Under the pieces are notes generated by a model, which did no database searches, was not told the DNA's origin, and saw nothing but the letters and a program-made list of their open reading frames with translations. Both the position numbers and the translations under genes were made by a program. From Takakia lepidozioides (Eukaryota; Plantae; Bryophyta): a stretch of 64,000 nucleotides of DNA. The stretch lies in the NCBI GenBank assembly GCA_030704615.1, contig CM060732.1, positions 23,312,001 through 23,376,000 of the forward strand, written 5' to 3'. How positions within the stretch are numbered: position 1 is the stretch's first letter; each line of letters opens with the position of its first letter. Below are positions 20,364 to 51,469 of the stretch, piece after piece.

Positions 20364-21649
20364 GAAGACACCAAGCCAGACGGGACCAACAACTGGTGCT
20401 CTGTGCGGAGCACTGCGACTCAGCTCTCTGACGACACGACGCGCGGGTGGAAGTTCTTCCACCCCACCAATGCAGCGAAGCGCATGTCTGCACCCAATCA
20501 TGACCTTCACCGGCCTGCTGCGATGGATATGATTACTAGTAGAAGGTGCCATAACTGGCTCTATGCGACGATGCGCACCCAAGCATCTGCTTACCACAAT
20601 TTCTGGCCCACTCTGACGATCTGTGCTCGCAAGAACAAGCTTGGTTTGATCTCGAAGCCCTCACCCTACAGCGGCGGCACAAGGGCTACTTCTAAGTGTT
20701 TCAAACGATGGGCGGCCACTGGCCTTCGCGACGATTGCATGCCCCAAAGGTCTCGCACTTCACCCGGCTTCACCCCCAGTGGAGGACATAGTGCTGGCAT
20801 ATTCGAACTACTACTTATCTGCAAGCGACCTTCCTCCCTGCTGCTTCTCACTCTCGCTCACTGCTCTTTTGTCCGTCGCAAAACGATCTACTGTGTAAAG
20901 GCGCTTCTTTTCAACCTTTTTTGGAGTCTTTGGAGTGTTACGAACCCCTTCAAGTTCACCAAGACCTCGGCCGTATACAAGCCTACAGGAAGGGCCCCCT
21001 CAGCGCTCTCTCTCTTGGCACCCAGGGTCACAGCAATGCGTTATCCCACGACAAGGTGCCTCGGCGAAAGTTCTTTTGGAGCTTTCTGCTCAACTCAATC
21101 TTCTTCTTACCTCTTTCGACTTTGGCTGCTTACAAGCATGCGGAACACAAGAAGAAATCTTCCAAGGCGACCCATGCTGCACTCGCAAGACATTCTACAC
21201 AATCTGATAAGATCTCCTCTCTCATCTCTCCATTTTTCTGGCTCTTTTTCTTTGGTTTGATGCTCCCGGTCGATACCGCTCTGGCCATCTCCCCCCTTGG
21301 GGCTACATCCACCCACTACCTTTGCATCAACGTGCTATTCCCCACGAGCTGGAAATTCATAACCTCTCATACCTCGGGCTTCCGAGGGATGCATTTAAAC
21401 ACAGCTCAACGTCATGGCAAGAAAGTTGGCAATGGTGGGAGCCCTCTCTGGCTCGCTATCTATGGAGGAATTGCAGAACTGACGCAAAAACTTTCAGTTA
21501 TCAAGGCTCCAGTATTATGTTCTCAATTGTATGTCCTGGGTCTGACTCGTCTGACTCTCCCAGGCTCAATGCAAGGCACTCTGTCTCAAGTATGCACGTC
21601 AAGACTACCCTCCTATACTGGCAATTCGACCGCCACCCCCTGCCCCTAC

Positions 21650-23555
21650 CAAATGTCATTCTGAACAATACACCCGTGCACATGTATGCAAAATGTGAGT
21701 GCATCGAGGATGCAAAGAGCGTGCTCCACAGTATGGCTGAACGAGATGTGTTGTCGTGGAGTGCGATGATTGCAGGATATTCCACCTCCACCATGACCAC
21801 AGCCTCCGAAAGAGGACCAAGAGAGGGAGTCTACCATACTTCTGGCACTTCTGGGCATGTGAGGACACTATGTGAGGCAGGGCAGCTGAAAGAGGCTCTA
21901 CAGATTTTGAGCGAAGGAGGCATTTCTGCAGATTCACTACTTATGTTTATCTCTTGCATAAGTGCATCAAGATGCAAGGCCTTGAAGCTGGAAATCATGT
22001 GCACTCTCACATTATCCAAACTGGATTCAATCCCAACGTTTTTCTGCTCACCACCCTGGTCAACATGTATGTTAAATACGGGAGTATCATGGATGCACAC
22101 CAAGCCTTCAAAACAATGCCTGAACGAGATCTGGTTATGTGGAACATAATAATGGCAAGATTTACCAAGCATGGATGTGGTAAAAATGCTTTGGAGACAT
22201 ATAGGCAGATGATACGGGCAGGGGTGAAGCCCAACCACATCACGTTTGTATGCCTTTGCAATGCATGTGCAAAGCCTGGCAGCCCTGGAAAAGCGCAAAG
22301 ATGTGCATGTTGACATCATCAAAGCTGGAGTTGTACCAAATGTCATTCTGAACACTGCCCTGGCAGCTCTGGAAAAGGGCAAAGAGGTCCATGGCGACAT
22401 CGTCAGAGCTGGAATTGTACCAACTGTTATTCTGAACTATACCCTGGTGATCATGTATGCGAAATGTGGGTGCATCAAGGAGGCAAAGGGAGGGTTTGAC
22501 ACTATGGCTGAACGAGATGCGGTGTCGTGGAATGTGATGCTTGCAGGGTATCCATGGCTTGGACGTGGTGTGGAGGCTTTGGAGACCTATGACCAATTGA
22601 CAGGGAAAGGGGTGAAACCCTACCACAGCACGTTTGTGTGCATATGCAATGTGTGTGCAAGCCTAGCAGCTCTCGGAAAGGACAAAGAGGTCCATGGTGA
22701 CATTGTCAGAGCTGGAATCGTGCCAAATGTCATTCTGAACCATACCCCCGTGGACATGTATGCAAAATGTGGGTGCATGAAGGATGCAAAGATCGTGCTC
22801 GACAGTATGGCTGAACGAGATGTGATGTCGTGGAGTGCGCCCTACCACAACACGTTTGTGTGCATTTGCAATGTGTATGCAAGCCTGGCAGCTCTAGAAA
22901 AGAATAAAGAGGTCCAAGGCGACATTGTCAGAGATGAAATTGTACCAAATGTCATTCTGAACACTTGCTTCAAGCTGACCCCACGCCTCGCCAGTGCAGC
23001 TCACAACCTGCAGACACTCTACCTGCTGATCAGGCCTCTCATCTCAAATACCACAGCGCAACCTGCTGCAATCATGGAGAAGCTGCAGCTCGCATACTCC
23101 CCCAGGCTTCCTTGGTACAGTAAGGCACACACACTCAGTACCTGCAATGATAGTTTGAAATGTTGGGAGTCCCCGTACAGCAACAATACCCCTGTTGGCG
23201 ATAAGGCCCGTGTGGACAGGTAGCAGTTCTTTCTGTATCTGCGCACCCTTTTCAAAATGGCAAATCAGCAAAGCCAAGCCTTATCAATGTGGGAAAAGAA
23301 TCTGAAACAGGTCATGGGCAGTCGTGCCCAACTGAAAGAACCCCAATTGAACGCATGTGCAAACCTGGCAGACCTGGAAAAACGCAAACATGTGCATGTC
23401 GACATCTTCAAAGCTGGAGTTGTACCAAATGCCATTCTGAACACTGCCCTGACAGCTCTGGAAGAGGGCAAAGAGGTCCATGGCAACATCGTCAGAGCTG
23501 GAATTGTACCAACTGTCATTCTGAACAATACCCTGGTGGACATGTATGCAAAATA
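21650..23555 (+). pseudogene. Scrambled PLS-class PPR pseudogene
   Basis: Repeated P-L-S motifs (NTLVDMYAKCGC..A...F..MAERD.VSW..M.AGY; KPNHITFVC.CNACASLAALEKGKEVH) with frameshifts and fused half-motifs. A non-PPR insert lies at ~22966-23348. No E/DYW domain seen. Confidence 0.9.
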
Positions 23556-28627: not shown

Positions 28628-31600
28628 TCAGCCTCTGCAAAATATTTACACACGCAGTTTATAGCCACAACCTAACTTCAAAATGCAACATAAGGAGTTA
28701 GTTAGCAGTAATTGCTACAGCTCCAGTCTCTTGAATGTTCACCTGTCTACTTTCCCAACTAGAAAGGTAGTTGTTTCAAAACTTGTTTAGGGAGGGAAGG
28801 TATTTGAGCAGGTGCAAGAGTAAAGGAAGATTATTTATACGAATTTGTTATGGTGGGTAGTAACTATCTTTTTCCTCAACTTCCCTTCCAACTTTATCCA
28901 CGTTTTTACAGTCAACTGGGCTGTTTTTACAGTCAACTGACCTTGATTTTACATGAAGAGTAGTTTTGAAAGTTTCAACCAGGATAAAAGCCATAACGAG
29001 ATTTACATAGGTCACATCCACAGGGTTAAACTTGTGTTGGCTTTCACTTTTGTTTTAGTTTTCTACCAGCAGATGTATTGTTTTTGTATGCAACCTCTGT
29101 TAGTGAACAATTATCATTCCACTGAACAGCACAACAATATACCACCGAATGGTAGAAAGTAAGCAGGTTGAGATGGGTTGATGTTAAGTCTTGAAAAATA
29201 ACTGTCTACACAAATAAAAGCATAACATGACTTACATAATTGTCATATGACACACAGGAAAAGAAGATTGTCCAGAATTGCACATACTGAACTGGCTTTG
29301 GAGTCAGTTTTTCACCAGGATTTAATCAAAACAAAGCAAGGGAAACAACCCCTTGCAGAGCCACAAGGTTTACAGGTAGATGGGCAAACCAGTTTGTGAG
29401 CATTTCCGTGGTTCAATGCCCATGTTACATAAGATCTTCAAGGCAGAAGATTGAAAGTGATTTGATGTGCTACGTTCCAATCCGAGGAGCCAGCAAAGTA
29501 ACTTTGCTGCTTACTGATAAGTTAGTAAAGCTAGTTCGATCGATGATCGATCCGTGCACCCGAAGAGCTTGGGAGTTCTGCAATGCATGGCATCGTTACC
29601 CTTTCTCGCTACTTCATACAATGATCTCTGAAAGCTGAGCGCAGTTTCTTTCCAATACCCACGTCCTTCATGAAAAGAAACATGTTTCATCGAGTTAGTG
29701 GAACCAAAGATTCTGTAGCGATGGATATTGGATTGACTCGTGCAGAAAAATGCGAACAAAGATAAAAACGAGCGACGGAGAGAGCATGAGAGACGATGAT
29801 CGCAACCAGAACAGACCACTTTTTCCAGAGGGAGTGGGAAGTATTACCGACATTTGTTGTTGTCCATACATGGCTACCAACTCCAGCCATTTCCCTGTAT
29901 TCTCTCCCAAGGCTAACTCGCCGGATATGTGGTTTATGGAACAGTGTCTGCGAACAATGGCTGGAAGGGATCACGATCGAAGAAGCCCCTGCATACATAC
30001 TGACTGATGCGGAGTCCGGACACTTGAAAGAGTTAACAGTGCAGTCAGTGATTTGCCGCGCACAGAACTCCCTGCCACCTCCAAGCCAAGACTTCTAGGT
30101 GCAACCAGCTTCTCCTCGTCTATGTAATCCAGAGCTGAAACGAGTCTGATCACGGACGTTGAGAGTGCCCATCACGACCCGTCAACATAACTGCAAATGT
30201 TGACAGATCGTGATGAACATTCCCAACGAGGGCATCAAGATCACACGCTTGCCACCCCAGATTTCCTCCAGCGTTTGCAAGATCCAGGTCTAGCCCGCCC
30301 AAAGCGCCTTCTTCCAACCTCTTGAGTCTAAGCTAATGTTTCAATCGAAGCCCAGCCAAAACCGGGCCATAGTTCTGAGATCCTCAAGTCAGATCTCTCC
30401 CTTACCTGATGGGTGGTCAGACGGCTGCCTAAGTACAGACAATTGAAGCTTGGTTGCGCATTGGTCGTAAGGTCCAGCGTGGGGCAGATGCAACGAGTAC
30501 AAAACTAGAACCTAAAGTACACCGTCAAAGAGACAACAACACGTAGCCCCTCAAGTGAATGCATTCTTCTCCATGTAGGGGACGGGACCCAACTGAACCC
30601 ACCCAAGCCCTGCCTCTCTTGGGCTGCTCGGATCGTAGGAGGCCCAACGGGTGAAAGACTGATACTCGAACAGTGAGAGCAATAGAGCCTCGGACTGGAA
30701 CAGTAGGTGACTGTAGGGTGCTAAACACGTATAAATATCATTTGCACTGAGGCTCCTTGCCCTTATAATATTGATGGCATGCTCGTCGAGCTGGTTGCCC
30801 ACGCCACACCATAACTGTTTGTCGACATGCAGACATTATTATTGTACTTCCGGTGAGAGGGACTGCGCCTAGTCTCGGGTGTGATGACTCTCATCATCCA
30901 CCCCTCCACATTTAAGATACTTACTGCTCCGTGATTAATCTCGCCATGACTAAACATCGAAATTAGGAAAGGTGCAGTGCTCCTGTTTATGGTCTCCCAC
31001 GAGGAAAGGCCAGGTGATGGAGAAGATACGCTTACAATAAAGACAAGGCAAGCCACCCAGGGAGCTGGTCATGGCACACCGCCACTCGCACATCTCTCTT
31101 CAACCCATGTTCTCTGCAAGTGCACTCTGCTTTAATCCTCCCGGCATCACTTCACCCTGCCCCATTAATGCCCGCTCCCCACCATCCTGCCACGCCGCCG
31201 CCTCCTCCCCCATAAGTTAGCCACCCCACCACCCCCCCTTCTCCTTCCCTTCCGCCTTCGTACACCCCCGTACTCTGATGAGCCCCTCCCCTTGTTTATC
31301 ATCATCAACCCACCACCTAATTATCACCTAATCACCTCATCACCTGCCCTGTTGTCTGTTCCCACTTTTGGGAACAGAAAAACCAAGCCTGCCAGCCCTC
31401 CTTTTTTAAGGGGAAAACTGTAAACCTTCCATGGGAGTCAGTCTTTTTTTTCCCTTAAGAAAGGGGATGGAGGCCCTGCACTTTATAACAGAGGGACAAA
31501 GCAATGTATTATATACATTGCTACATAAGCTTTTCTTTCTTTCTTTTGTTTGTGGGTGAGAACTTTTATTATCACCCTGTTTTTGCACCTTGTTACACTT

Positions 31601-34600
31601 GCCAGACTCCACTGTTTTGTTTACAATCTTCAGGCTTGAGTTACATTAAATTGCAAGCTTTTGTGTTTCATGTAAACACACAAGAGAGCTACTCAGACGG
31701 TCGTCTCATAATAAGAATTTTGGAAAGGCAGTACCATATAAGAACAAATGTTGGTTGATGATGGAGGTGACAACTTGCCTGAATTGAACCCAATCATCAC
31801 CATTTTTCTTCTGTAGTATTTTTACTTTTGAATACCCAAAAGATTGGTAAGGCTAGTAGCACAGTGGGTGGAATCTTTTCCTCGGAAATTTTCTGGCCAT
31901 AAAATGTGGCTAGGATGGCTCCATGGAGTGAAATGGCTAAGAAGAAAGGCCGTCTAGACACATAGGGATCTTCTGGGGGACAATACTATATGCACACTCA
32001 TATCCACTCTAGTTTCAAGGTGTCCGTTCTGCGAAACAAACAAGGAAAACCCAATACAGAAAACAAAAACAAAAAAAAAACAATTGAGTATCACAGTTTC
32101 AAGAGAGGATCAAACACGTGCTACTTGTTTTTTTCCTGCTGGTTTGAGTTTCGCCCTTTGGTTTTTTGGCTTGTACTTTGCTTGCGCTTCTTTTTGACAC
32201 ACTTGTTGCAATATATGAATATAATAAATGAATAAGATGTAGGGATGACTCCAAAACACTCATCCTCAGTTGTCTTAACTTTGCAAGCTCTAGCCATGTA
32301 CTTAGTACTTATGCCTCTTTTTAAGACATCCATGATGGGGTGAGCTCATAAGCCCACCGCCCATTCAGGGGTTGGCCAGATTCTAAGAAAAATTTAAGTC
32401 CTTGTTCATCTACCGCGGCGGACCTTAATGGTCATATCCGGCATCTCAATGTTCGAGGATTAATTTCCCAAGCCTAACTGCCTAAGTTGTTTAATTCATT
32501 TTTATGTGGTGGGTCAACCAAAACTGTTTTTTAACAAATTTCTTTTTATGTGAAGCAGTGTGAGAGATGCTTCTGAGAGTGCGGCCACAAATACGCTCAT
32601 ATGTCATGTGTGATGTTGGAGGGGGGTGATTCCACGAATACGACACCGCGCGATTCCTCATAAACAAATGTAGATACTTGATGGGCTAAGAACAAGACAC
32701 ATATTGATTCCATATCGATGGAGGGAAAATAGAAATTACCTGAATAAGACACTGATCTTACTAAACTTGATTCTCTATATAACAAAGAATAAATGAATGG
32801 GTGCATGACCTGATTTGTCACCTTCCATTAGGGACAATGTAGAAACATTTATATTGGTTGTGCAAAAAACAATTTATGGGCGGGTGTGGTCCGGCCAATC
32901 CACCAGATCTTTCTAACTCTACTAAGGTACCCATAAGCCCCATAAATTCTCCCTTGACTTAACCCCTAAGTTATTTTCAATATTTCTTAAATAAGAGAAA
33001 AGCTGGAGCGGTGTCTTGTTTCTCAGCCTTCATGGCTTTTGTAAGGTTATTTTTTCCTTACCCTTAATAAAATTCTCAGGGCCACTGTCCCCTATTCCTC
33101 AAAAGTAGAAAAGAAAAGCAAAAAAGAGAAAAGATTTAAATTATTTTAAGACTTGTAAATGCAGCTGCCTTTGATCCCTCAGCGTGGATTGGGTCTGGGG
33201 CTCAACCCTCTGTGGTTTAGGAGCCTCAGGTCCCCTGTAACTTGTGCCTCATGGCTCAGAAAGGTTGTTCCCTGCACCCATCGTTCAGGGTTCCTTTCCA
33301 AACAAACAAACACATTTCTGGCAGAAAGAAAAAATCAAAAAAAATATTTCTTATTGTTTAAAATGTTCTTATATGCAGTACAACGCTTCGTCGCCCTTTG
33401 GGGGGTGGGCCCTATAAAGAAAACTCTACGGACACCAGGTAATTTTCGAGCTATGTATGTCAAATCCGCAGACTTGCATCATATGCGCGGCAGGTGTGTG
33501 GAATGGAGGACATGCAAATGTAGCCTGCAACGAGGGCTTTACAACTTTTGCCCAAAAACAAAACTCTCTGTACTTTAAAAGTTATGTGCACTACAATCCG
33601 ATGCAGGGACCTATACAGAGCTACATATTGATAGTGAAGTGACACCAGAAAAGTGCACTTATTAGGCTCTCTCTTCCTGGGGGAGGAGTGTTGAGTCTTC
33701 CACTCTCTCTCTCTCTCTCCCGCTAATAAGTATGTAGTTAGTAGTTACATCCACACACCCTGATACATTTATACATTGATACAGTGATAGAGGCCGTTTG
33801 AAATGAAGCAACAAGACAGCCACATTGATGACTGATTATGACTCCATGTTTGTTGGTGTGATGCACCAATCACAACCCCACATTGTATGAACCAAGCAAG
33901 TGACATGTCAGAAAAGAAGCAGAAGGGCTGTAGATTCTGGACTTGTATACTTGCTGTCTGTCCTGCAACAGTCGGAGCAGGCATTTACTGTGGATCTTCT
34001 AAATTTTAGCCCATAATCTGGTGTCTGAACAGCAACACTGGGTCATCAATGTAACTGTAAATTTTGGGCTTGCGAATCCACATCGATCTGCGTGGAAGAT
34101 TACATCACCAGGCCAGCGTTTAATACTCTCGGAACCCAAACCTCCAATTTATTAAAATTGGCTTTCTGTATCAAAATCCCTAAACAATCAACCTCCAATT
34201 TATTTCTCGCTTTGTTGGGGTAATTTAAGTATTAAGAACTCTCCCATCCGAGGTGTGGTAAATGGAATGAACTCTCCCTCCGACAACAGGGAAGGACACA
34301 AACTGCGACTGCGCCGTCGGCGGTGGCTTTGGTGGGCCGGACGGCGACGGCGGACGTGCGTGTCCGGCATGACCCCGGCACGGGTGCGGCATGGCACGGG
34401 TCCCCAGGCCCCGCGCCAGCCTGGGATACGTGGATGAATTTCATTCGCTGGTTTGCTGGTTGGTCGGATGGCGCAGCCTTGCATTATGTCACTATTTCCC
34501 AGTCCATCTGGCATCGACAGGTAGGTCATTCCTCCGATGGATGAACATAGATGAAAACTGGTTCCCATCCCCGTTTTTTCGTTTGAGTTCCTACAGGGTT

Positions 34601-34646
34601 CCCCGTAGGTTATGTGATGGATTACATCCCTTCTAGAGCTGGCAGG

Positions 34647-34880
34647 TTTTATTTTTTATTTTTTATTTTTTTATTTTAAAGGAAACCTGGGAGCGACTGC
34701 TCACAATTCAGGCCCTTGAGGAGGGGGAAAAATTAACCCCCTTTCAGATAAGCCACAGGTGGGAAAAGTCACCACCAGACCAGCCGGTCGCGAACAATCC
34801 ACACACCAGGCAGGGCAGCGGGTTTGAACCCCGAACCACCAGGGCGACACACTGTGCACTTACCAGCTGATGTGCCAGGT
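34647..34880 (-). mobile_element. tRNA-derived SINE-like element
   Basis: Minus strand has an A-box-like TGGCACATCAGCTGG (34877-34863), B box GGTTCAAACCC (34830-34820) and an (A5T)n-type tail at ~34680-34647. No TSD recognised. Confidence 0.55.
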
Positions 34881-35014
34881 TTTGCGAGTCAACCAAGCCG
34901 AGCACATTGCTTTTGCTCCAGGAGAGATCGAACTCCTTACAAAGCTTCCTCCGACGTTGCTCCGAAGCTATGGGACAGCTGCAAGAAGAGAAACCCAAGC
35001 CTTGCGCCCCTCAA

Positions 35015-37585
35015 TCATCATATCACCATAAATTTTAAAAAGAGTCCAGTCAGCACTCCTAACGCCCTAATACAACTCCCAACCGAAAACTATGGAATTG
35101 GCTCTAGCCCATTGATCATCTTGTATGCCCGTACACTAGGCACACAATTAAAAGAAGCATTAAACGACCCTGGTCGCCTTGGTATCATCTACCAAGGACT
35201 CCTCAAATTCTTGGCCCTAAATTACAATGGCCTCTACACGCTATCATCCCTGCACCCACAAGCCTGCTTGCACTCCCCCACTGCACGCACACTACTCATC
35301 CTACACCAAATGAAAATCAGTGTACAAACTGACCTACCGGACTACCCTAATACCTCCTTCCACTGGAACGCACCTGGCTCAGAAGTCCTTATCTGTCGCA
35401 ATTCGAAAATTTCTCATCCAAAACAAAGAATCCTCATCCTCACTTACTTCAAAGAGCGTCACATTACCACCCTCACCCAACTCACCACAGCCACAGGTCG
35501 CCGACTTCTAAGGCCCAGTGAATTCACTACTAAATTCTCGCGTGCTACGACCAAAACCAGTCGTTATTTACAGCACCTCCGCACACTCTTTTGCCATCCA
35601 ACTAAAGCCTGCACCCTTCAATGCGACCTTCCCTGCCCCCACTACCCACATACGGCCCAAGACCTGCTCCCCCAGTACAGATCTGCCCCAACTGCCTCCA
35701 TTTATCAAAAACTCAGAACACCGCCTGTCACTAATACTCCCACATACACCGAACCTGACCCTCCTTCTGAAGCACCCGACACTCCAACCAATATGCCAAA
35801 CATCCCCACCTATCCCCCACTATCCCCCGTAGGGACCCCCCCTACCTCCCCACATAACCCCGTTAACCCTAATGTCTTTGTCATTGAAGCCATACTGGGT
35901 GTCAAAACCCAAACGTCAATAGACGCCTTTGGGGCCACCTGCGTTGACACATATTATCACTGCAAATGGGCTGGCTATTCCTCAGAAGACAACACATGGC
36001 AAAAAGAAGACGATCTTTTTGGCCCTCGTGACGATGTGATCCAGACCACAACCTGGCCCTTCTCACCGCCTTCTACAAATATACTAACACCGCCTACCTT
36101 ACACATATCCACCAGCAACATGCCACCCCCGCCCAACCTATAGACAATAGATACATCCACAAACCGATATCGGCCCCCAACGTTCACATATGTATAACTG
36201 AATGCAACCCAGACAAAGATATCAAACATGTTCCACCATTCATCCACATGGGTCCTCGCCTTTCTAAAGTTTATGCTCAGAATGGTCGCTTCATTGGGCT
36301 TATCCCCAACGATAGGTTAACATGGCTATGGGGCAAATACTCTACTCCAAATTGATACACACAATCACTATAACCACCCAAACATGATTTCGCCACAGAA
36401 CTATACTGGCTAATTGACCGTTATCTCAAAGATACTCCTCCCAAAAAGCCACGATCCTTTTCCAGGCTAGAAATGGCATGTGCCCATCATACTCTACCCC
36501 CAGATATTCTAACCTTACTTGTCAATACATTCCAAATTACTCATTCATATTACTCCAACCCACTTACTTGCCCTATGGAACTACACACATTTGTCAGCCC
36601 ACATCAAAAGGACTGTGTCTTCGGTGTCACTGGTGAAGCCACCCAACATGCCTGGGAGGGCCGGGGTTTTTCCCAACCCCCCCTCCGGGCCCATTGCTCA
36701 CGAAGCTCTTCAATGGGCCCGATTCGCAGCTCATTCATCCCTTATGCTTCAACAATCCTCATCCTCACACAACAAAACACACCTAACACATCTCATCCTC
36801 TTTTACGCCTCCTTGCAGGAATTAACTTACTAACCACTATTGACCCGAATCAGCTCAAGTATGTTCACACCCCTCCTCTCCCCAAATATCTCCAACAGAA
36901 GGAACCCACCCTCACCCTCATTCTACATGTTCAACACCCCCTCCATGCCGACATACCCACACCATTCTTTAATGAGCTAGAACAACTACTAACTATAACA
37001 CATAAAGTAAAAGCCACCATTCATCACCCACCTGCCCCCCCCTCCCACAATCACACCTACCACCTTCCCACAACTCAAAACAAACAAAGCCTGGGTCAGG
37101 CGCTACCGCGCCCACACCAGGCCTCGTTAATTGACCCCCTCCCCTCCATTTCCTCAATATACAGGCAAATCACCACCCTTAAATATCCTCCGGCTAACTC
37201 CCACTACACTGACGGATCCCTTAACAAACCTAATGCAGGATACGACATCTATTATGCAGGCACATGGAAAGGGGTTGCCCACATGTTCCTTGGCCCTGCA
37301 ACCATTCTAAGGGCCGAGCTTATGGCCATCCACGATGCTCTCCTCCTACTTGATACCTCCCCCCCCCCATATTTCATCTTCACGGACAGCCTCACCTCAC
37401 TATTTCTTATCAGAAACCACATTTCCCGCCCCTCCTCCCACCACCACCACCCCGATCGCAATCTCATTGCAACCATTGTCAAAGCTGTCACCTCCATAGG
37501 ACACCCAATCTACCTACTTAAAGTCCGCTCACACACTGGTATCCAGGGGAACGAGGAAGCTAACCTCCTCGCACACATTGGGTAG
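35015..37585 (+). mobile_element. 5'-truncated LINE ORF2: post-RT region, chromodomain, N6-adenine-MTase-like segment, RNase H
   Basis: LPTENYGIG (RT thumb-end GGLG-like). Chromodomain ~35877-36020 (FVIEAILG..YYHCKWAGYSSEDNTWQKEDDL). ~36480-36730 reads SNPLTC..FVS..DCVFG..G..WEGRGFS/NPP. RNase H ~37200-37585 (YTDGS, RAELMAI, IFTDS, KVRSHTGIQGNEEAN). Frameshifts present. Confidence 0.82.
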
Positions 37586-38910
37586 CAGAAAGCAGTCATG
37601 CACCGCTCTTTCATCCAAAGAAGCTGAATATATGGTCATGACTAGTGGCGCAAAAGAGGTTGTGTGGCTGAGGAGATTGTTTGGAGAAATTCAAGCAATC
37701 GACAAACAAGAACCACAAATCATGGTCGACAAGTCCTCATGATGGGAAGTGTGGCTCTGACCAATCTTGATATATATACTCAAGGATAGATGCAGCATTG
37801 ATCCTTAGTTCATTTTCATTCATGCCATTTATGTCGGGCACACTTTATTCCGCGACTCCAGTACATGTCTATTACTAACATGAGGTGTATCTGTGATGAG
37901 TAATTGTCCCTACCCACGCCTTACTATACAGAAAAGTTCCAATTCCTGGTGATCTAGTTCACCAGAAATAGGGGCAGGCATGAATGGTCTACATGGTTGC
38001 AAGTTACCTACAGACCTGTATCATCGCAAATAGTTGAAACAAGGTGTGTCGGCGCCCTTACTTCTCCACTTTTGATAGCTATGTTCAGATGTTCAGATCG
38101 AATAAATGTCATGGTATGAATGACAATGAACTACAGAGCGAGGCTAAATCTATACTTCAGTGCATACGAGAGTTGATCCAAGCCATACTTCTGGTGTTGA
38201 CGCAAGTGGCTGCTATTGCTATAGCTCTAGCATCAATAGTTGGTATGTTTCACTAGATGATTTTGTGTGCAATGTGGTCATATGAAACAAAGTGGAAAAG
38301 CTGATGAGACACTCACTCGTACTTGATAAAGACAACACTCCGTTTCGTGGTCATCACAAGAGATTTGCTATCAAGAATGAAAAGGGTGAATTCGAAGAGC
38401 AGTATTGCACAAGAAGTTTGACCATAATGCAAGACCCAATTTCCTGTTCAATTTTCTTGTGGACCACTATATATATCATGATTTTTAGTGCCCTTGAACA
38501 TTTCAATATTTTTTTCCGATCGGACAATCCAGTATTGTTGCTGACCTCAATCTTGATGAGGCATATGAGCAAAATAATTGAGTTTCACTAAGTTTTGAGG
38601 AGATCCGACGGTGCCATGCTCTGAGTCCCGCTTTCTTCCATTCTTGTTTTCTTTCACCAGTTCTTTGTCGTGTACCTGAGACAAAAATGATATCAAGGAA
38701 GATGGTGGTCTATGGCCACAAGGCTATGGCAAATGATATAACCAAGTAGCGATTAGACATCATTTTGTCAGAGAATGAAAAGTTGCAGATGGTGAATTAG
38801 AAATGAATCATGTTCCATCTTCTGATTAGCTAGTAGACATCTTGACCAAACCCTTGGGTCGCATTGTGTTCGAGAAACTAAGTGACAAGCTAGGTTTGGT
38901 ACATACGATT
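37580..38910 (+). mobile_element. Ty1/copia RNase H remnant split by ~1 kb of unrelated DNA
   Basis: SRKQSCTALSSKEAEYMVMTSGAKEVVWLRRL at ~37585-37720; IRHHFVRE..D*LVDILTKPLGRIVFEKL at ~38750-38900. Confidence 0.8.
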
Positions 38911-39983
38911 GACTACTCGAATTCTGCCAAAACTCGGAGCATACAGTCTATTAAACTATAATTACTTTCTCTTTGTATACTCTCTTGGAATGATGAATAA
39001 CTTCCAAGTTCGAAGGGACGTGTTGAGTACTTCAGGCAAAGAAGATCGATGACGTCTCAAACGGTCGGTTTGTTGACTACTCAAGAATAGCTCCACTGAG
39101 TATGTGAAATAGGATAATTTAGTGGACCACTCCGTCAGTCGCCAGTAGTTAATCATGAAATGAGTTGTGCTTCCCCGCTCTCTTAGACTTAGGATTAGTA
39201 TGTTATGTTGCTTCGAGTTTAATCAAACAGACTTCAGACATCCCAGTTCTCCTTCACGATCCTCTACAATCATATGCCCTTACTGGCGCACCTGGAGAAA
39301 TAGGGGTTTTCGAATTATGTTGACAATATTTTTGCAGTTGATGCGGCAAAGATCGTCAAATTTAATCTCATTTTCGAGATGTGTTGTTGGAAGAACAAGA
39401 TGCTTTTGGTGGGTCCAAGAAACATTGAATATCCTACAAGAGGTTTAGAGTGGCCGGAGAAGAAAAAGACACATATGTGTGATTGAAAAAAAATAAAGAG
39501 ATTGTAAAATGAAAAGCCTAAGCTAGATGATACTTTCTTTTACTATTACGTCACGGTTCAATATGCTTAGTCTACTAGCTTTAACATTGTGTTGTTTCAG
39601 TTGCACTTACTTTATACAATTGTCTTTTTCTAATTGGTGTGGTTGCAGAGAAATTACAATCTAAACTTGAACTTTGATGATAAGTAATATCAAGGATTAT
39701 TGGTCAAAAGAATTTACTTGTATCATCTTCCCAACTAACATGTGTTTTATCATAACAGATCAGGAGTCAATAGTAACAAACAGTTAAACTTATAGTTGAG
39801 TTCTTTCAAAGAGAAAATAAACTAATGCATGGAATATGACATGCAAGCCATGCCTTGTCGATGAAACAACTTGTTGTCTCATGCCATAATGTAACACCTG
39901 AAAAACACTACGACATGACTATAAAATAGAAAGTCTTGTGTTGGATGAAACATGAAACCCCAAACTTGCACCATTGCTAAGCA

Positions 39984-40588
39984 CCGTAGTTGGATAGCTA
40001 GTTGGGCATTTTTCACCTAATCATTATTAGAACAAGTTTATAAATTTGGCATGTTTGACACACACTGTTCATATTAGGCAACTTCATGATATATATTTTT
40101 TGAATTAGGCACACGAAAAGAGAAAAAAATGATTTCTAAAAAAAAAAAAACAAAAAACAAAAACCTGAAGTCTTTGTCCCCTTGCCCATATGCCCATCTC
40201 AACTCTCCTCCCAGCCTGCCCCCACCCCTATCTCTTGTCCCAGTCCTAGCAGATTTCGCCACCAACTTGTTTGTGATGAAATGATGATTTGGTGGACGGA
40301 ACTCCTAGAGTGGATCAATCTGATGGCATTGTCGAGTCATGGGCCTCTTGAAGTTACATGGCCCAACTCTTATCTGTTGAGATTTGTAGGAATAAAGATA
40401 GTTCTGACAATATATGTATGTATTGATATTTGTTCAATGAAAATTTTCTCTTGTTACAAACAATCTAATAAAGGTTTGAAAATTTTTGCTCGAATTTTTG
40501 CTGATCAATTAGGCAAAAATTTGAAAATTTACCTAAACGTATTTGGCACTTTGAATTAATTATTGCCTAACCGGCCAGCCAACTACGG
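39984..40588. mobile_element. MITE-like element with CCGTAGTTGG inverted termini
   Basis: accgtagttggatagctagttgggca at 39983-40008 versus the reverse complement of 40564-40589, accgtagttggctggccggttaggca. Flanks CA/TA fit a decayed TA target (Tc1/mariner-like). Non-coding AT-rich interior. Confidence 0.6.
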
Positions 40589-40759
40589 TAGTTTCAACTG
40601 TCACCACATGCACTAACTACTACATCATGTTTACATTCTTCATCTATATATATGGATTAAATGACACATTTCTCTCTTGGGTCACGAGACTTGCACCATT
40701 CTTTTCGGAGGATTATATATATATATATTCCATATACATATATCTTGATGTGATTGGCT

Positions 40760-41230
40760 TGCCGCTGATAATAGCTAGAGCCTTCTTCTTCCTCCGATCT
40801 TGGTTGGCCTGGAATTCTCTATCCATCGGCATGAGGATTTTATCGGCATTTGGCTCAACTACAACTATGAGTTCATCTTTTTGTAGCAAACTGGATACGC
40901 GGAATTTCCACGTGCTATAATTCGACTGTCCTCCCAGTTTAGAGCTCTCCGACATGCTGCTCTCTCCATGGGCCATATTGACTCAATGCAACTTAGAATA
41001 CTATGCCGGAGAGTCAGCTTCTAAGAGACCCTATCCACCAACTTGCTCTGGTACCATGTAGAGGGCCCAACACTATTTTAACTAATTTTGGACTTTTGTT
41101 TGGTCCAGAAATAATATAAGATATATTAATAAATATAATCTATAATATAAATAAAGAGATATATCTATAATTATTTGACTATTTGTGCACTATCTAACAA
41201 CAAATTATATAATCCTCCACACATTCTACG
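40760..41230 (-). mobile_element. Ty1/copia 5' remnant: LTR end, PBS, gag start
   Basis: Minus strand ..CTCTACA followed by PBS TGGTACCAGAGC (41056-41045, tRNA-Met-like). The ORF from 40976, KLGGQSNYSTWKFRVSSLLQKDEL, is a typical copia gag N-terminus. Outer LTR edge uncertain. Confidence 0.75.
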
Positions 41231-41820
41231 CAAAAATACAAGTATTTATTGTGGTCTTAGATGAACATCCACTGCCAAGTTGACGTTCATTAAAATGAAT
41301 GGGAGGATGCAATGAATCAAACAATGATGAGAACTCCGATATCCAAAATGACATACACAAACAAACATGGAACAATGGCAGAACCAAATATGAAACAATG
41401 ATAGCATGTGACGAAGAGGACAACATGGAAAAACGAGTCTGTCGGAACCTGATTGATGATATGAAACATTCATATTATATCATTCAAGGTGATGGACCAA
41501 CAGAAAAATGAACGTCAACTGTCCATCCGTTCATGGACTTAATGCCATACAAGCCATAGATTTTGAAGCCATAGAATCGTTACGGCTTATACTAACTCAT
41601 TAATAATATTGAGCCTCCTCCCAAACGGTTCGTAGTCAAGGCATGTGTCTGAAGACGCCTCCGGTTACCACAGCCACTTGCAACGGTCTCCGCACCAGAG
41701 GACACGGAGATACTTTCAGGAAGGTGAAACCGGCTGACATTATCATCTGAAATGTTACTGCCAACTTGATGCCCTTGAAGCCTCCCAGCACACCCGCCAT
41801 TCTTCCCAATCACGCAGCTC

Positions 41821-42117
41821 TTGTTTCTCTGTGAATCTTCCTCGACAGAGTTCACGGAGTCGACAACTACAACTACATGTGAAGAAGGGGCGAACTTGCT
41901 GCCCATCCAGGAGTCTGATTGTGCAGACACGCAGTGGCACATAGAACGAACTCCGCAAGGCTCGAAGGTGAAATGTTCCGCTATCAGGGCAACGTCCTTT
42001 GTGAAGTGCACATCTATGATTTGTGAAACCCCAGCAGGGACTCCAGCCCCAACTTTCACAGGGTTATTCAAGCATTATAATGCGCGGGAGGCCAGGCCTC
42101 ACAAGTTTTGGTTTTGA
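41821..42117 (+). pseudogene. Remnant of an unidentified, probably transposon-borne Cys-containing ORF
   Basis: Protein-like stretch IQESDCADTQWHIERTPQGSKVKC..KC..TPAPTFTG, convergent with the FCP1-like ORF. No family recognised with certainty. Confidence 0.3.
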
Positions 42118-42139: not shown

Positions 42140-42958
42140 TTAGGCCCAAAGTGGAAGTTTTGCATATGGATTTGTTGAGGTAAGAGTGCAAATACAAATG
42201 CAAAAGAATTGGAAAATCAAATTCTGAACAATCAACAGAACAGTGGGATCCACGTGCCTACCAAGGTAATCAGGTTCATTTTGTTGTGGGATCCAAACAC
42301 GAGGATCAAGATATCTTCCATACCAGGCCCAGCAGGCATGGTCTCGACCAATAGGCTTATGAGAACACTTTGACCGGCTCTCGCTAATGTAATCAACGAC
42401 TGTTGAAGCTCCAGCCATCTCTGATATATATGGCCACACTACTTTTGTCATATCATCCCGGTCACGCAAGCCGTTTGGTGAAGGCTTGAATGAGAAAGGG
42501 AAGAATCCAGTATTTTGTGGGTTTCGCAGGCCCTTTGATGGCTCATCATCTACAAGAAGTATTTGCCCCTGCGTAGCAAACGGTCTACTAGGGTACTTGG
42601 CAATAACACTTCGAATATCCTTCATGAGATATTTCATCCCGGACCTGATATAACCGGTGGTATCCTTACAATCCTCAGTAGACCATATGAAACAAAACTT
42701 CTTCGTTATTTTCGTGGGGACGAAGCTCTCCAACATCCTACAAAGAACACCTCTATCAGCGCATGACCAAATGACCACGTGAAAATGTTTCAATGCAAGG
42801 TCCAGAAACTCCAAGACTCCAGGCCGAGGCACCACAAATGGTCTATCAGGAACTTGAAGTGTCACATTCCTGAAACGAAATTTCTCCTTAAACAGTTCAC
42901 CACCGATTGGGGGTGGCCGGTAGCAGAGGAGTCCGTTGACACTCAAAATTAACAACAT
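42140..42958 (-). CDS. FCP1/NIF-like HAD phosphatase domain ORF, first catalytic Asp replaced
   Basis: LLILSVNGLL (motif I, D to S), RPGVLEFL, FHVVIWS, KDI, ILLVDDEPSKGLRNP. Intronless across the domain; lies near a CACTA end. Confidence 0.72.
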   Translation of the reverse strand: MLLILSVNGLLCYRPPPIGGELFKEKFRFRNVTLQVPDRPFVVPRPGVLEFLDLALKHFHVVIWSCADRGVLCRMLESFVPTKITKKFCFIWSTEDCKDTTGYIRSGMKYLMKDIRSVIAKYPSRPFATQGQILLVDDEPSKGLRNPQNTGFFPFSFKPSPNGLRDRDDMTKVVWPYISEMAGASTVVDYISESRSKCSHKPIGRDHACWAWYGRYLDPRVWIPQQNEPDYLGRHVDPTVLLIVQNLIFQFFCICICTLTSTNPYAKLPLWA

Positions 42959-43094
42959 CCGTTTCCTCTTCCCCGCTGTTGCATGTAAAGGATGAGAGAC
43001 AAAGTTATCCTGAGCAGGTTAATCACACACTGACATTAGTGTTTCTGCCATGAAAATACCCATGATCCAGAATGATTGAGTGTATGGAAGATCA

Positions 43095-47500: not shown

Positions 47501-47819
47501 TAGAGGACGCGTCCAGTGGTTGCTATGTTGCAACCTCTTGAGCAGTACTCCCTGTCTGCTCAGTCAATGACAATGCCTCATCCTGCCCCATCATCTCATC
47601 CTCGAGGACTTCTTCAACCCGAGAAAAATCCCCAACCTCATCCATCGCCGCCGCCTTGGCTGCCAACTCCCTCTGAACCTCGAGCATCTCCCACGTGTGC
47701 CATGGATGCCTGCACCCCGTGGTCGTCTCATGCTCGCCCCCACTCACTGCCTGTACCGTCTCGGTAGGCAGAGAGACCATCGAGGGAAGTGTACTTCGCA
47801 CTCTGCGTTGCTCAGCCAT

Positions 47820-48770
47820 AGCCAAGCTGATAATCCAGGTTAAGCAATTGAGATCCATTGCTTGCCCCAACACCTGACGACGTGATGTCTCAGAAAGAGA
47901 TGGCACCGCCGTGGTACCAGTGGTAAAACCCATTGCCCGCTCACGCTCGTCAGCATCAGGCTCCACTAACTGCTGCAACTGAGCATCCCACAGGAGGCCA
48001 GGTCCACTATCCCGGAAAGCATGCGATCCGGGGAAGCTGAGCAGTGTAGGTAATGCTGCTCGTCGTTGACCCACCTTGTTGACCACTGCCAAAGGCGAAC
48101 GGTCATCATGTCTTACACGCTGAGACTGCCTCCCTGTGTCCAAAATGTTATCCACTGTGAGGTGTGCTGGCTGTTGCACCCCATCAAATGCACGCTTGAG
48201 CAATGCGGGTGGCATCAAGTTAGTCCACCATAGCCGTGGACGATGAGCCCGTGACCCCACTGTAGCTGCATCTACCAACACTGCTGACCCAAGCCACGAC
48301 CGGACTTGATGTACACTGGCCATCACCTTAGCCCGAGAATCGTCCATCAATGGCACATTCTCCAATATGTATGCTGGAGATACAGCTTGATGAAGCTGCA
48401 AGTGGCGCAAAACCCGCACCATCTCCCAAAACAGACCCGACCTCGAGTCTCGCAATCCATTGCCATGCCCGGCTGATGAATGCCCTTGGCAGGGCCAACC
48501 TACCACTACCAGATCAATGGAGCCAACCCACTCCAAATCCTGCGCCCCCAGCAACGAAATGTCTGCTGGCAAGGCTTGTTGATATCCACGAACTACAGAT
48601 ACCGGCAACAACTCAGGGTACTGCTGCACCAACTGAGCAACATAGCAAAGTGAAACGCGTCGTGCAATCTCATCCCTCTCCACATACAGGTAACGCCAAA
48701 CTCGTATACCTGCCTGTAATACAGCAGCCAATCCGATACTGATCCCGCCAAACAAGTCCAGAAAACAAAT
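47820..48770 (-). other. C5-cytosine DNA methyltransferase domain (DNMT3-like) within the Gypsy polyprotein
   Basis: Motif I FLDLFGGISIG, II YVERD, III DISLL, IV GWPCQG (PCQ 48494-48486), V GLFWE, VI ENV, VIII AHRPRLWWTN, IX ERERAMGF, X RRQVLGQAM. All lie in one open frame (ORF 47523-50582). Confidence 0.95.
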
Positions 48771-51469
48771 GCCTTCATCCGGATACTGCCACACAATAGG
48801 TGTGGTATCCAATGGTGACAACTGAGGTGGTCCTGGTGCAATCCCCGCACTCTCCTCCTCTCCTGATGGTACAAAAGCCTCCACCCAGGCTTGTTGCACC
48901 CGTCGATCAGCAATCCGCTGCAAATCCTTGCTCGTGCCCCACAATGGAGTCTGAGCAACCATGGCAGGCAACTCCGCCATACCATACATGTCATCCTGCT
49001 CTCCTGGAGGTGTGTCATCCTCTGAATGAGCGTTGCCCTCTAGCAACTCTCCAGGCCAAGTCACTGCAGCTGTGAATGCTGCTAGTGTCAGTATCTTGCC
49101 CCGCTGGGCAACCGCAACTCCTCCTATGAACGTCACAAGGAGTTGTACACGCCGGCCCTCCCCTGACTGCCATCTGGGCCTATAGGAAGCTGACTCCTCC
49201 CAAAAATCCAGGGTGAAGCCCATAAGGTACAACACTGCCCCACCAACCAGGACATCGTACGAGACCGCGTCTGTCACAATGGCCTTGGCTCGCATCACTG
49301 AGCCATCTGTAGGGTGATCCGGCCGTAGTCTGATAGCCAACTCACGCCGTGTCATGCCCCGAGCCTGCTCCAATCCTCCCAGAGACGTCTGTATCTGGAA
49401 AGGACAAGGCTCCATATCCGTCTCCGTGATGCCCAAGCCTGCAATAGCAGCTCTGCCCAGCATCAATGGCTGAGCTCCCAAGTCCAACAAGACCCGCAGT
49501 GGCCGGTACCTCTTGCCTGCCGGTCCACTCAAACAGAAAATGTCATCTTGGTTGTCTAACATGACAACTCCAGGTGTCACCATGGTGCGCTCAATGGCTG
49601 GCCTAGCTGGCAGCTCCATCAACCTGGCAGCTGCAGCTTGCCATGGCGCCGTCGTGGCAGTCTTGACCCTCAAATCCGAGGATCCCTCTGGCACTACACC
49701 TCCCACTATCTCCGCAGAAGATGAAGTAACCTCCTCACTCTCACAGAGTGTAGCTGCCAGCCTGAACACCTCAGCTGGTCTTACCCCCGGCGTCGCAATC
49801 ATGGTAGCCGAGAACAATGGAGCCTGGCACACAGATGTGGCCGCTCTCAGTAGCACACTAATTGCCGTAGCCTTGGCAACACTAGGTAGTGGTGCTGCCC
49901 GTGTAGCTCTCCCAAATGGCATAGTAACCTCCGCCTCAGTAACAGTCGGGTGAGAACTAGGTGCCATGGATGGCGTCGACACTATCTCCACCAATGTGAA
50001 TGACTGAGGAAGCCTAGCCTGATGGCTTGCCTCCCCACGCAGTGGATCCAACTCCACCTCTGAACCTCGTGGCTCAGGAACTCGTGTTGCTCCTCGGGTC
50101 ATGGCTGCAGCAGACTCCACCTGCACTAGTGGTAGTGCTGCTCCGCACATGAATCCCATGCCTCCCATATCTCCTCCCTCAGGAGCAGGAGGTGGACCAT
50201 CCGGCCTTGGATCCGATACCACCTGAGCTGTAGCCATGGTAGCGAGCCTATATTCTAGCTGCTGAAGCCGGTTGGCCATGCCTTGGTCAACACCCTGACC
50301 TCCGTGTCCTTGGCCATGTTGAGCTTGCTCTTGGCCTGCACTTTGTGCCTGGCCACCTCGTCCTCTCTGGGCTGCTCCACCTCGCCCTCGGCCACCATTG
50401 TTCCCTTGGAACTGGCCTGGGCGCAACTCAGGATGCAAACCATAACATTGGGCCTCTCCATGCCCGTGCTTGCCACAATGCCCACACTGCCCACACTGCA
50501 ACTGTGCAGGCTGTGCATGTGCCGGCCCTTTGCCTCCCTCTGGGCAATCCTTCTTGACATGGGGTCCTCCACATTCCAACACACCACCTCAGCCCGTTGT
50601 TGGCCTGCAAATGAAGAAAGAGACCCCTGCATCTGTGGTCCTCTCTGTCCTTCCCTGAGCTTACCCACTAGTATCGCTAGTGCTCGAACCGGCACTGTCC
50701 CTAGCAACTAGTGGCACCTCCGTGTTGACAAACTGTCACTCAACCGGTCATGAACATGTCCCTAACCCCCTCTCCACAAGGTAACCGGGTAAAGAACCTG
50801 TTGCGGCTTATGGTTTGGAATACTAGGTTCCTAACATAGCCTATACCTACACCTGCATCCACCGCAAGCACTCATATGGTTGGCTGGTCATCACCTCCAA
50901 CCTCACCATAGGAGAAACAATGATGGTCTGACTGGTCATCACCCCAGCCTCACCATCGACAGCATACTCTAGGACTGGCCGGTGATCAAATCCGGACCAA
51001 TCACCTATAAAAACAAGGCCCACACAAAACTAACATGGCGCACAGTCAAGCATGCAGGTATGGAGGGGATCCAAACACAAGAAATCAGAACGACAACTCC
51101 CCCACACCAAAAACAACTCCACGGTGTTGTTCCTGCAAGGACATCCCAGCCCAAACCCGGACTGACTCTTGCTTCCACCTACGGAAAGGTCTTGGCATAA
51201 TAAGAGGATGGAAAACTATGAGGAAGAGAAGCTAAAGCAATGCCTAACCCAGCATGCCCTCACCCCAATACTCTTTTTCTCCTCTCTTCCCTCACTTGCA
51301 TGACCATGGAAATATCATGAAGATACTCCTCAAACCACCCTCCACGAGCTTTAAAATTTGGCCTTCAAGACCGCATGCTAGTCCTTAGGCAGTCCACCAT
51401 TGCCTCCACGAGTCAGCACAGGCTGTCCACAGGTCAACACGGGCCACCACAGACCAGCACACGCCCACA

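Follow-up and report, generated by a model that had tools for sequence, protein, structure and literature searches.

The element described here, likely a Dualen/RandI-type LINE, carries between its chromodomain and its RNase H a domain that is a real homologue of the PCIF1/CAPAM-type fold. PCIF1/CAPAM is a cap-specific adenosine N6-methyltransferase. The copy in the window (the whole 64,000-nucleotide stretch of DNA that was analysed) is dead and truncated at both ends and is in itself an ordinary dead fragment. At the family level the domain was under purifying selection and mostly reads His-Pro where the NPPF motif of CAPAM would stand. On balance the evidence leans towards an old PCIF1 capture that may have been kept as a likely non-catalytic module holding the RNA or the RNA:DNA hybrid of the element.

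Layout of the element copy

The element lies within a C- and A-rich stretch of the plus strand, at about 34990-37585, in a window that is eukaryotic, likely from a land plant, is rich in repeats and contains PPR fragments as well as Gypsy-type integrase and RNase H pieces according to a Pfam scan. Its parts are listed below, where P followed by four digits denotes related proteins and L001-L003 related loci, all from public assemblies.

34995..35303 (+): 5'-most recognisable piece of the polyprotein (L001 frame 1, 36% identity, E 2e-17)
35496..35660 (+): Cys-rich segment common to the relatives (tblastn match to L001, also P0100)
35877..36023 (+): chromodomain (PF00385, E 7.4e-7, 29.4 bits against a cut-off of 25.1)
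36240..36940 (+): PCIF1/CAPAM-like domain, ends approximate (PF12237, family hhalign, model of P0012)
36530..36625 (+): blocks equivalent to FASPLN and D..FG of CAPAM (alignment to 6IRX/6IRV)
36674..36686 (+): site equivalent to NPPF of CAPAM (motif IV); the family evidence gives H-P-P-S, and a +1 break falls at 36675-36676
36676..36740 (+): about 21 codons read out of frame, from the +1 break to the -1 break that compensates for it
37202..37576 (+): RNase H (PF00075, E 3.8e-11)
37577..37590 (+): 3' break of the element, followed by a copia-like RNase H fragment (translation and ends of the matches)

The segment at 34995..35303, which gave no match in a PDB search, is presumably the one directly after the reverse transcriptase, judging by its motif. 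The reading frame changes 3' of the chromodomain, between about 36026 and 36044, and stops at 36353-36355 and 36371-36373 interrupt the PCIF1/CAPAM-like domain. A 403-codon frame (36374-37582) yields the RNase H together with a weak PF12237 match, and the preceding frame yields the chromodomain, a domain also found in the relative P0012. The PCIF1/CAPAM-like domain corresponds to the end of the helical domain and the Rossmann-fold methyltransferase domain, and the blocks at 36530..36625 presumably form its cofactor side. The initial annotation had located a methyltransferase module between a chromodomain and an RNase H, and the PF00385 and PF00075 matches before and after the domain bear this out. 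The peptides that it quoted are likewise present, FQITHSYYSNPLTC at 36530-36571, SPHQKDCVFG at 36596-36625 and WEGRGF at 36653-36670.

The last acidic catalytic position of the RNase H is Asn in the window copy and Asp in all seven aligned relatives. Matches to P0001, P0163 and L001 stop at 37582-37591, and the zinc knuckle and endonuclease of the relatives are missing from the window copy through 3' truncation. At its start the copy adjoins a short repeat of high copy number, and at its other end it breaks off at about 37583; within 30000-42000 neither terminal repeats nor a target-site duplication can be made out. In each of the four runs of one sample, which may be the window's own source, contigs without any difference from the window span the breaks, so that the breaks are a property of the window copy. 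The element is present in multiple copies, as 1492 contigs of run X1 align to 34500-38000, many of them belonging to the short repeat at 34650-34870, and 576 are less than 90% alike. Contig cover in the same run is raised over 35085-37775. No RNA sample was listed as containing the element, a result that carries no information on its expression.

Identity of the PCIF1/CAPAM-like domain

The direct match of the window copy to PF12237 is weak (E 0.0011, 19.1 bits, below the cut-off of 31.1). Its unshifted stretch of 100 residues nevertheless reaches 132.7 bits with a family profile made without the window, against 5.4 for the best of 500 shuffles, and hhalign aligns the window domain to the family at 99.85%. 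Intact relatives exceed the PF12237 cut-off (L001 with 42.1, L002 with 45.0, L003 with 32.0 and P0002 with 40.4 bits), and 23 of 30 further relatives match PF12237 at E up to 0.01. P0001 is 39% identical over 91% of the window's frame, and the same layout is found in P0001-P0009 and L001-L003. By profile search the family comprises 530 clusters (50% identity) at E up to 0.001 and 167 at up to 1e-10; the relatives analysed here are the best 150 of the 530 clusters. No related loci were found in the viral contigs, prokaryote genomes and phages searched.

Structural comparisons lead to the same fold. In the PDB a family profile of 127 rows finds zebrafish and human PCIF1 only (E 9.3e-5 and 0.02), and pairwise alignment places H-P-H-N of the family opposite NPPF of CAPAM. 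The look-alikes in the Atlas are PF12237 clusters (0.94). P0012 is the row nearest to the window (48% over 182 columns), and its model has a mean pLDDT of 70.6 with 170 residues at pLDDT of at least 90; the first model, built on an alignment of 8 rows, was poor (pLDDT 49.6, CAPAM E 2.9e-3) and was set aside. The six top PDB matches of the P0012 model in Foldseek are all CAPAM (E 2.3e-10 to 3.4e-8). A wide structural search gave CAPAM a Z of 15.2 (rmsd 4.2 over 222 residues), compared with 7.7 for the next fold, and E. coli Dam reaches a Z of 6.1 against the same model. Among viral models giant-virus PCIF1 is the best match (E 1.6e-7), with phage Dam at 1.4e-3 or worse, and the Dam family profile has no listed match to any protein scanned with Pfam, that is the window and its relatives.

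The proposal of a PCIF1-type adenine-methyltransferase fold in a non-LTR-type element is thus supported by both profile and fold. The initial annotation had also labelled the domain as Dam- or DIRS-like and had suggested comparing it with PCIF1 and Dam profiles and structures; that comparison does find similarity, with PCIF1/CAPAM far above Dam on the profiles and on the model of the relative, and points to PCIF1/CAPAM itself. A DIRS/Dam origin is not favoured, given that Dam folds score far below CAPAM/PCIF1.

Residues 97-350 of P0012 align to residues 425-673 of zebrafish CAPAM. As the structural match begins only at zebrafish residue 425, it leaves out the WW domain and the greater part of the helical domain, and no match to the WW family was found in any scanned relative. 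The absence of a WW match, the mostly unmatched helical domain and the chromodomain in front set the protein apart from a cellular PCIF1/CAPAM orthologue.

The frameshift and the reading of motif IV

An NPP motif had initially been read in the window by removing a single base. The frame change itself is right, since only the shifted frame makes all six of the sibling differences listed at 36719-36737 synonymous, but the placement that gives NPP is wrong. Depending on where it is placed, one extra base can yield N (36667-36674), H (36675-36676) or Q (36677 onward). Sibling contigs, 3-6 per run, encode W-E-G-R-G-L-A followed by a codon for His at the point where they rejoin the window, 36676. 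On the family profile the His placement is the best of 22, with 184.5 bits compared with 180.3 for S-N-P-P-S. Both the sibling copies and the family profile therefore give His rather than Asn at motif IV, and NPP as a family motif is ruled out by the sibling contigs, the motif tally and the family-profile scores. The assumption of a single frameshift holds for the break at 36675-36676 and overlooked a compensating second break near 36738-36741, where sibling contigs have one extra base behind 36738/36739.

Motif IV and selection across the family

The site of motif IV is covered by 113 of 153 aligned rows. Its first position is His in 83 of the 113 and Asn in 2, and its second is Pro in 82. 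The third is more mixed (His 33, Pro 26, Thr 21), as is the fourth (Asn 36, Thr 20, Asp 19, His 8, Tyr 6), so that 6 of 113 rows have an aromatic at the fourth position; one of F, Y, W and H stands at the third or fourth in 51. The consensus of the family, which the initial annotation had named as the test for an intact NPP[FYW], is without NPP. The window lineage, with H-P-P-S, departs from the active-enzyme motif [DNSH]PP[YFW], whose canonical form is seen in 4 of 113 rows, all reading HPPY (P0056, P0058, P0070 and P0074). These HPPY members sit inside the window's own clade, which may mean that the aromatic was either kept or regained. The distant member P0153 reads NPEY, which is clear in the alignment and misregistered in the 113-row tally. 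Judged by their sequences, P0153 and the cluster P0177-P0179 are the best candidates for an active or ancestral form; the link of P0153 to a retrotransposon is the source name of one cluster member only. P0153 also has the highest PF12237 score among those scanned (67.7 bits).

The His at motif IV is common to members that are 22-34% identical and is present in 5 of 7 deep-branching members. In the upstream blocks D is kept in 100 of 115 rows, F in 105 of 112, G in 93 of 112 and W in 100 of 111, the cofactor-side blocks are kept at 72-94%, and W, D, F, G and P columns are invariant over 12 members at about 20-30% identity. One column is Ser in 79% of rows, and a Glu conserved in PCIF1, listed as such in the supplement of Iyer et al., appears to map there. 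Many rows are short, probably deriving from decayed copies, and the apparent variability is inflated as a result. The view of the module as decayed is apt for the window copy; across the family, however, the His motif is conserved.

Among the 40 best-supported of 79 sibling differences 29 are synonymous, compared with 24% expected (binomial p 1.7e-10), and L001 and L002 differ with a dN of 0.20 and a dS of about 2, which is saturated. The PCIF1-like domain was under purifying selection. A tree of the 44 rows that cover at least 135 core columns, with the remaining rows left out, separates 38 rows, the window among them, as a clade from 6 distant ones (100/99); it has no outgroup, so that the donor and the order of events are unreadable from it.

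Affiliation of the element

The RNase H profile is matched by 6 of the 8 relatives that extend 130 or more residues beyond the domain, and by a cluster mate of a seventh. The domain, the RNase H and a C-terminal motif region occur together in 6 of 199 proteins. In P0001, P0165 and P0167 the motifs C-x2-C...H-x4-C, RHN, PD and E can be seen by eye in this C-terminal region, and we take them to be a CCHC knuckle and a restriction-like endonuclease. Profile and PDB searches list RNase H rows only, with no match for the zinc knuckle/endonuclease region of the relatives, which end in this endonuclease-like region without an integrase or recombinase. No reverse transcriptase or APE was seen in any recovered contig or protein (loci of 1.1-3.2 kb). 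A search with the P0001 region among proteins of 1240-3540 aa gave no full-length protein bearing a reverse transcriptase, the cluster mates of 20 proteins, up to 1392 aa long, are without a reverse transcriptase match, and an Atlas search with P0167 gave no usable match.

The order RNase H, CCHC and restriction-like endonuclease is that reported for Dualen (PMC5029228), and RNase H is listed for Dualen/RandI (PMC4640811). The element is likely a Dualen/RandI-type LINE, known here from its C-terminal half, as the reverse transcriptase and APE lie beyond the reach of the contigs and proteins. In the truncated window copy the reverse transcriptase and any ORF1 fall outside the sequence that is left, so that ORF2 is a putative label. 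It is improbable that the element belongs instead to a different kind of retroelement that shares this C-terminal half, namely an RLE-only non-LTR lineage with RNase H. Such a lineage would fit a set of contigs and proteins in which neither reverse transcriptase nor APE is seen, and a zinc knuckle and endonuclease identified by eye rather than by a profile or PDB match. It fits less well with the Dualen order of the domains (PMC5029228), and RLE-only Utopia elements that have RNase H are described as carrying it upstream of the reverse transcriptase (PMC4640811). The choice touches the label only and is compatible with all functional readings.

Possible functions of the domain

It is proposed that an ancestral element captured a PCIF1-type gene, of cellular or giant-virus origin, but not its WW domain or the bulk of its cap-binding helical domain. 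With the loss of the adenine-stacking aromatic, methyl transfer to adenine would have ceased or weakened. The fold would have been kept to grip the element RNA or RNA:DNA hybrid passing from the reverse transcriptase to the RNase H during target-primed reverse transcription, and the chromodomain would help to select the chromatin target. The aromatic of [DNSH]PP[YFW] is described as holding the target base by stacking (PMC4738411), PCIF1 is reported to be killed by changing NPPF to APPA or SPPG and by N553A (10.1101/485862, PMC9178792), and the helical domain is reportedly needed for full CAPAM activity (PMC8287941). Since 107 of 113 rows have lost the aromatic and the helical domain is mostly unmatched, most members are unlikely to methylate adenine, and the conservation of the fold despite the altered motif points to a non-catalytic role. 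Since PCIF1 acts in vitro on ssRNA, RNA/DNA hybrid and ssDNA (PMC9178792), the fold can engage such substrates. The methyltransferase domains of DIRS1 are called 'likely inactive' yet are kept (Iyer et al.), and in the fly a dead version of Pcif1 is reported to be kept and to act on chromatin (PMC10158991).

The conserved His speaks against this proposal. It is an allowed first residue of [DNSH]PP[YFW] (PMC4738411), fungal N6-methyltransferases are listed with HPPY (Iyer et al. supplement), and its being common to members only 22-34% identical speaks for a specific role. The stacking could have another source, given that 51 of 113 rows have F, Y, W or H at one of the last two motif positions. 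The domain could be an active methyltransferase with a His-type motif, placing m6A on the element RNA or the new cDNA or acting on another substrate. Since His is allowed and deeply conserved and HPPY and NPEY members exist, this carries a substantial minority share of the probability. An enzyme of this kind would, with the same limited likelihood, mark fresh insertions as active chromatin or protect the RNA. The distribution of His (83 of 113 rows, 5 of 7 deep-branching members), the cofactor-side blocks conserved at 72-94%, the four HPPY rows and the NPEY of P0153 are in keeping with activity, as is the report that DAM-LTR insertions carry more 6mA (bioRxiv 10.64898/2026.05.21.726589). The rarity of an aromatic at position 4 (6 of 113) and of the second Pro (26 of 113) argues the other way, as does the mostly unmatched helical domain, the alignment starting at zebrafish residue 425; retrotransposon DAMs with intact motifs are also reported to have given no 6mA in E. 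coli (bioRxiv 10.64898/2026.05.21.726589). A bolder and rather unlikely version would have Dualen-type LINEs capture PCIF1 long ago, rebuild the active site around His and methylate their own RNA or cDNA during integration. If true, this would be a plant or algal LINE writing its own adenine mark.

There is a small chance that the domain acts through protein contacts and, together with the chromodomain, tethers the particle to chromatin or to the transcription or capping machinery by mimicking PCIF1. Mimicry of PCIF1 has been suggested for the DIRS domains (Iyer et al.), the dead fly Pcif1 acts on chromatin (PMC10158991) and the domain stands directly behind the chromodomain; PCIF1, however, is reported to contact the polymerase via its WW domain (PMC8287941), which finds no match in the scanned relatives. 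Least probable is a functionless relic or spacer, kept since a single long frame must stay open. The free variation at motif positions 3 and 4 would suit a relic, but the synonymous excess among siblings, the invariance of the W, D, F, G and P columns among 12 members that are about 20-30% identical and the confident predicted fold (170 residues at pLDDT of at least 90) would not. The evidence as a whole still leans towards the non-catalytic module proposed above.

Neighbouring features in the window

RNase H fragments at 37581-37740 (+), which adjoin the 3' break of the element, and at about 38770-38900 (+) are presumably copia-like, to judge by their motifs. The short repeat at 34645-34875 (-) has a summed contig depth of about 47,000, compared with about 37 for single-copy contigs, and contigs of a presumed RNA run also align to it. 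By eye it begins with stretches like an A-box and a B-box and ends in an A-rich tail; it has no tRNA match in ARAGORN and no Rfam match, and is probably a tRNA-derived SINE. An inverted repeat of 56 bases (37773-37828 / 38111-38166; 77% complementary, 282 bases apart) is possibly a decayed MITE, and broken PPR-repeat frames lie at 21211-23220 (+).

A Gypsy-type element at 47526-50588 (-), continuing to about 44460, carries a C-5 cytosine methyltransferase (PF00145, E 1.8e-11) between a protease-like region and the reverse transcriptase, a layout that resembles KnitGypsy-Dnmt3 as described from the alga Klebsormidium (PMC5890265). The host in the present case may be a land plant. Directly downstream of it lies a NIF (FCP1-like phosphatase) frame at 42143-43018 (-) (PF03031, E 5.4e-10), possibly cargo of the Gypsy element.

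Relation to known systems

PCIF1/CAPAM (PDB 6IRV, 6IRW, 6IRX-6IS0; PF12237) and its giant-virus homologues have the same fold and conserved blocks as the element domain, which differs in being without a WW domain, in its mostly unmatched helical domain, in reading H-P-x-x for NPPF and in forming part of a retrotransposon polyprotein. The Dualen/RandI non-LTR retrotransposons were reportedly described by Kojima and Fujiwara in 2005. Like them, the relatives have an RNase H followed by a CCHC knuckle and a restriction-like endonuclease, as far as motifs seen by eye can tell. Dualen-1_GCr is itself reported to carry an extra chromatin enzyme, a SET methyltransferase (PMC5029228). A chromodomain and a PCIF1-like domain before the RNase H go unmentioned for Dualen/RandI in the available text of five sources (PMC4640811, PMC9977147, PMC5029228, PMC3636483, PMC8226300).

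The methyltransferases of DIRS and DAM-LTR elements belong to the same broad clade of adenine-methyltransferase folds, sometimes accompany a chromodomain and often have a damaged motif; they are described as short Dam-like domains in tyrosine-recombinase or LTR elements (PMC4738411, bioRxiv 10.64898/2026.05.21.726589). The domain described here, in contrast, scores with PF12237, keeps the upstream helices of PCIF1 and resides in a non-LTR-type element. DAM-LTRs are reported to be absent from streptophytes, and the available main text of the same preprint makes no mention of PCIF1, Dualen or RandI (bioRxiv 10.64898/2026.05.21.726589). DIRS domains are placed in the PCIF1 clade by Iyer et al., whose supplementary PCIF1 list, in its accessible part, contains no fusion to RNase H, reverse transcriptase or chromodomain. 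SymbioLINE-Dnmt is likewise a LINE with a DNA-methyltransferase fold under purifying selection, but is reported to have a cytosine methyltransferase, in a separate ORF1, and to occur in dinoflagellates (PMC5890265). In the full-text literature searched no paper was found on a PCIF1 domain in a LINE; the original Dualen paper, Repbase or preprint supplements could already record the domain.

The finding adds non-LTR elements to the DIRS and LTR elements as hosts of captured adenine-methyltransferase folds, and the donor, the cap enzyme PCIF1, is a different one. A family in which NPEY, HPPY and HPxx variants exist side by side offers a direct test of why retrotransposons keep methyltransferase folds, even dead ones.
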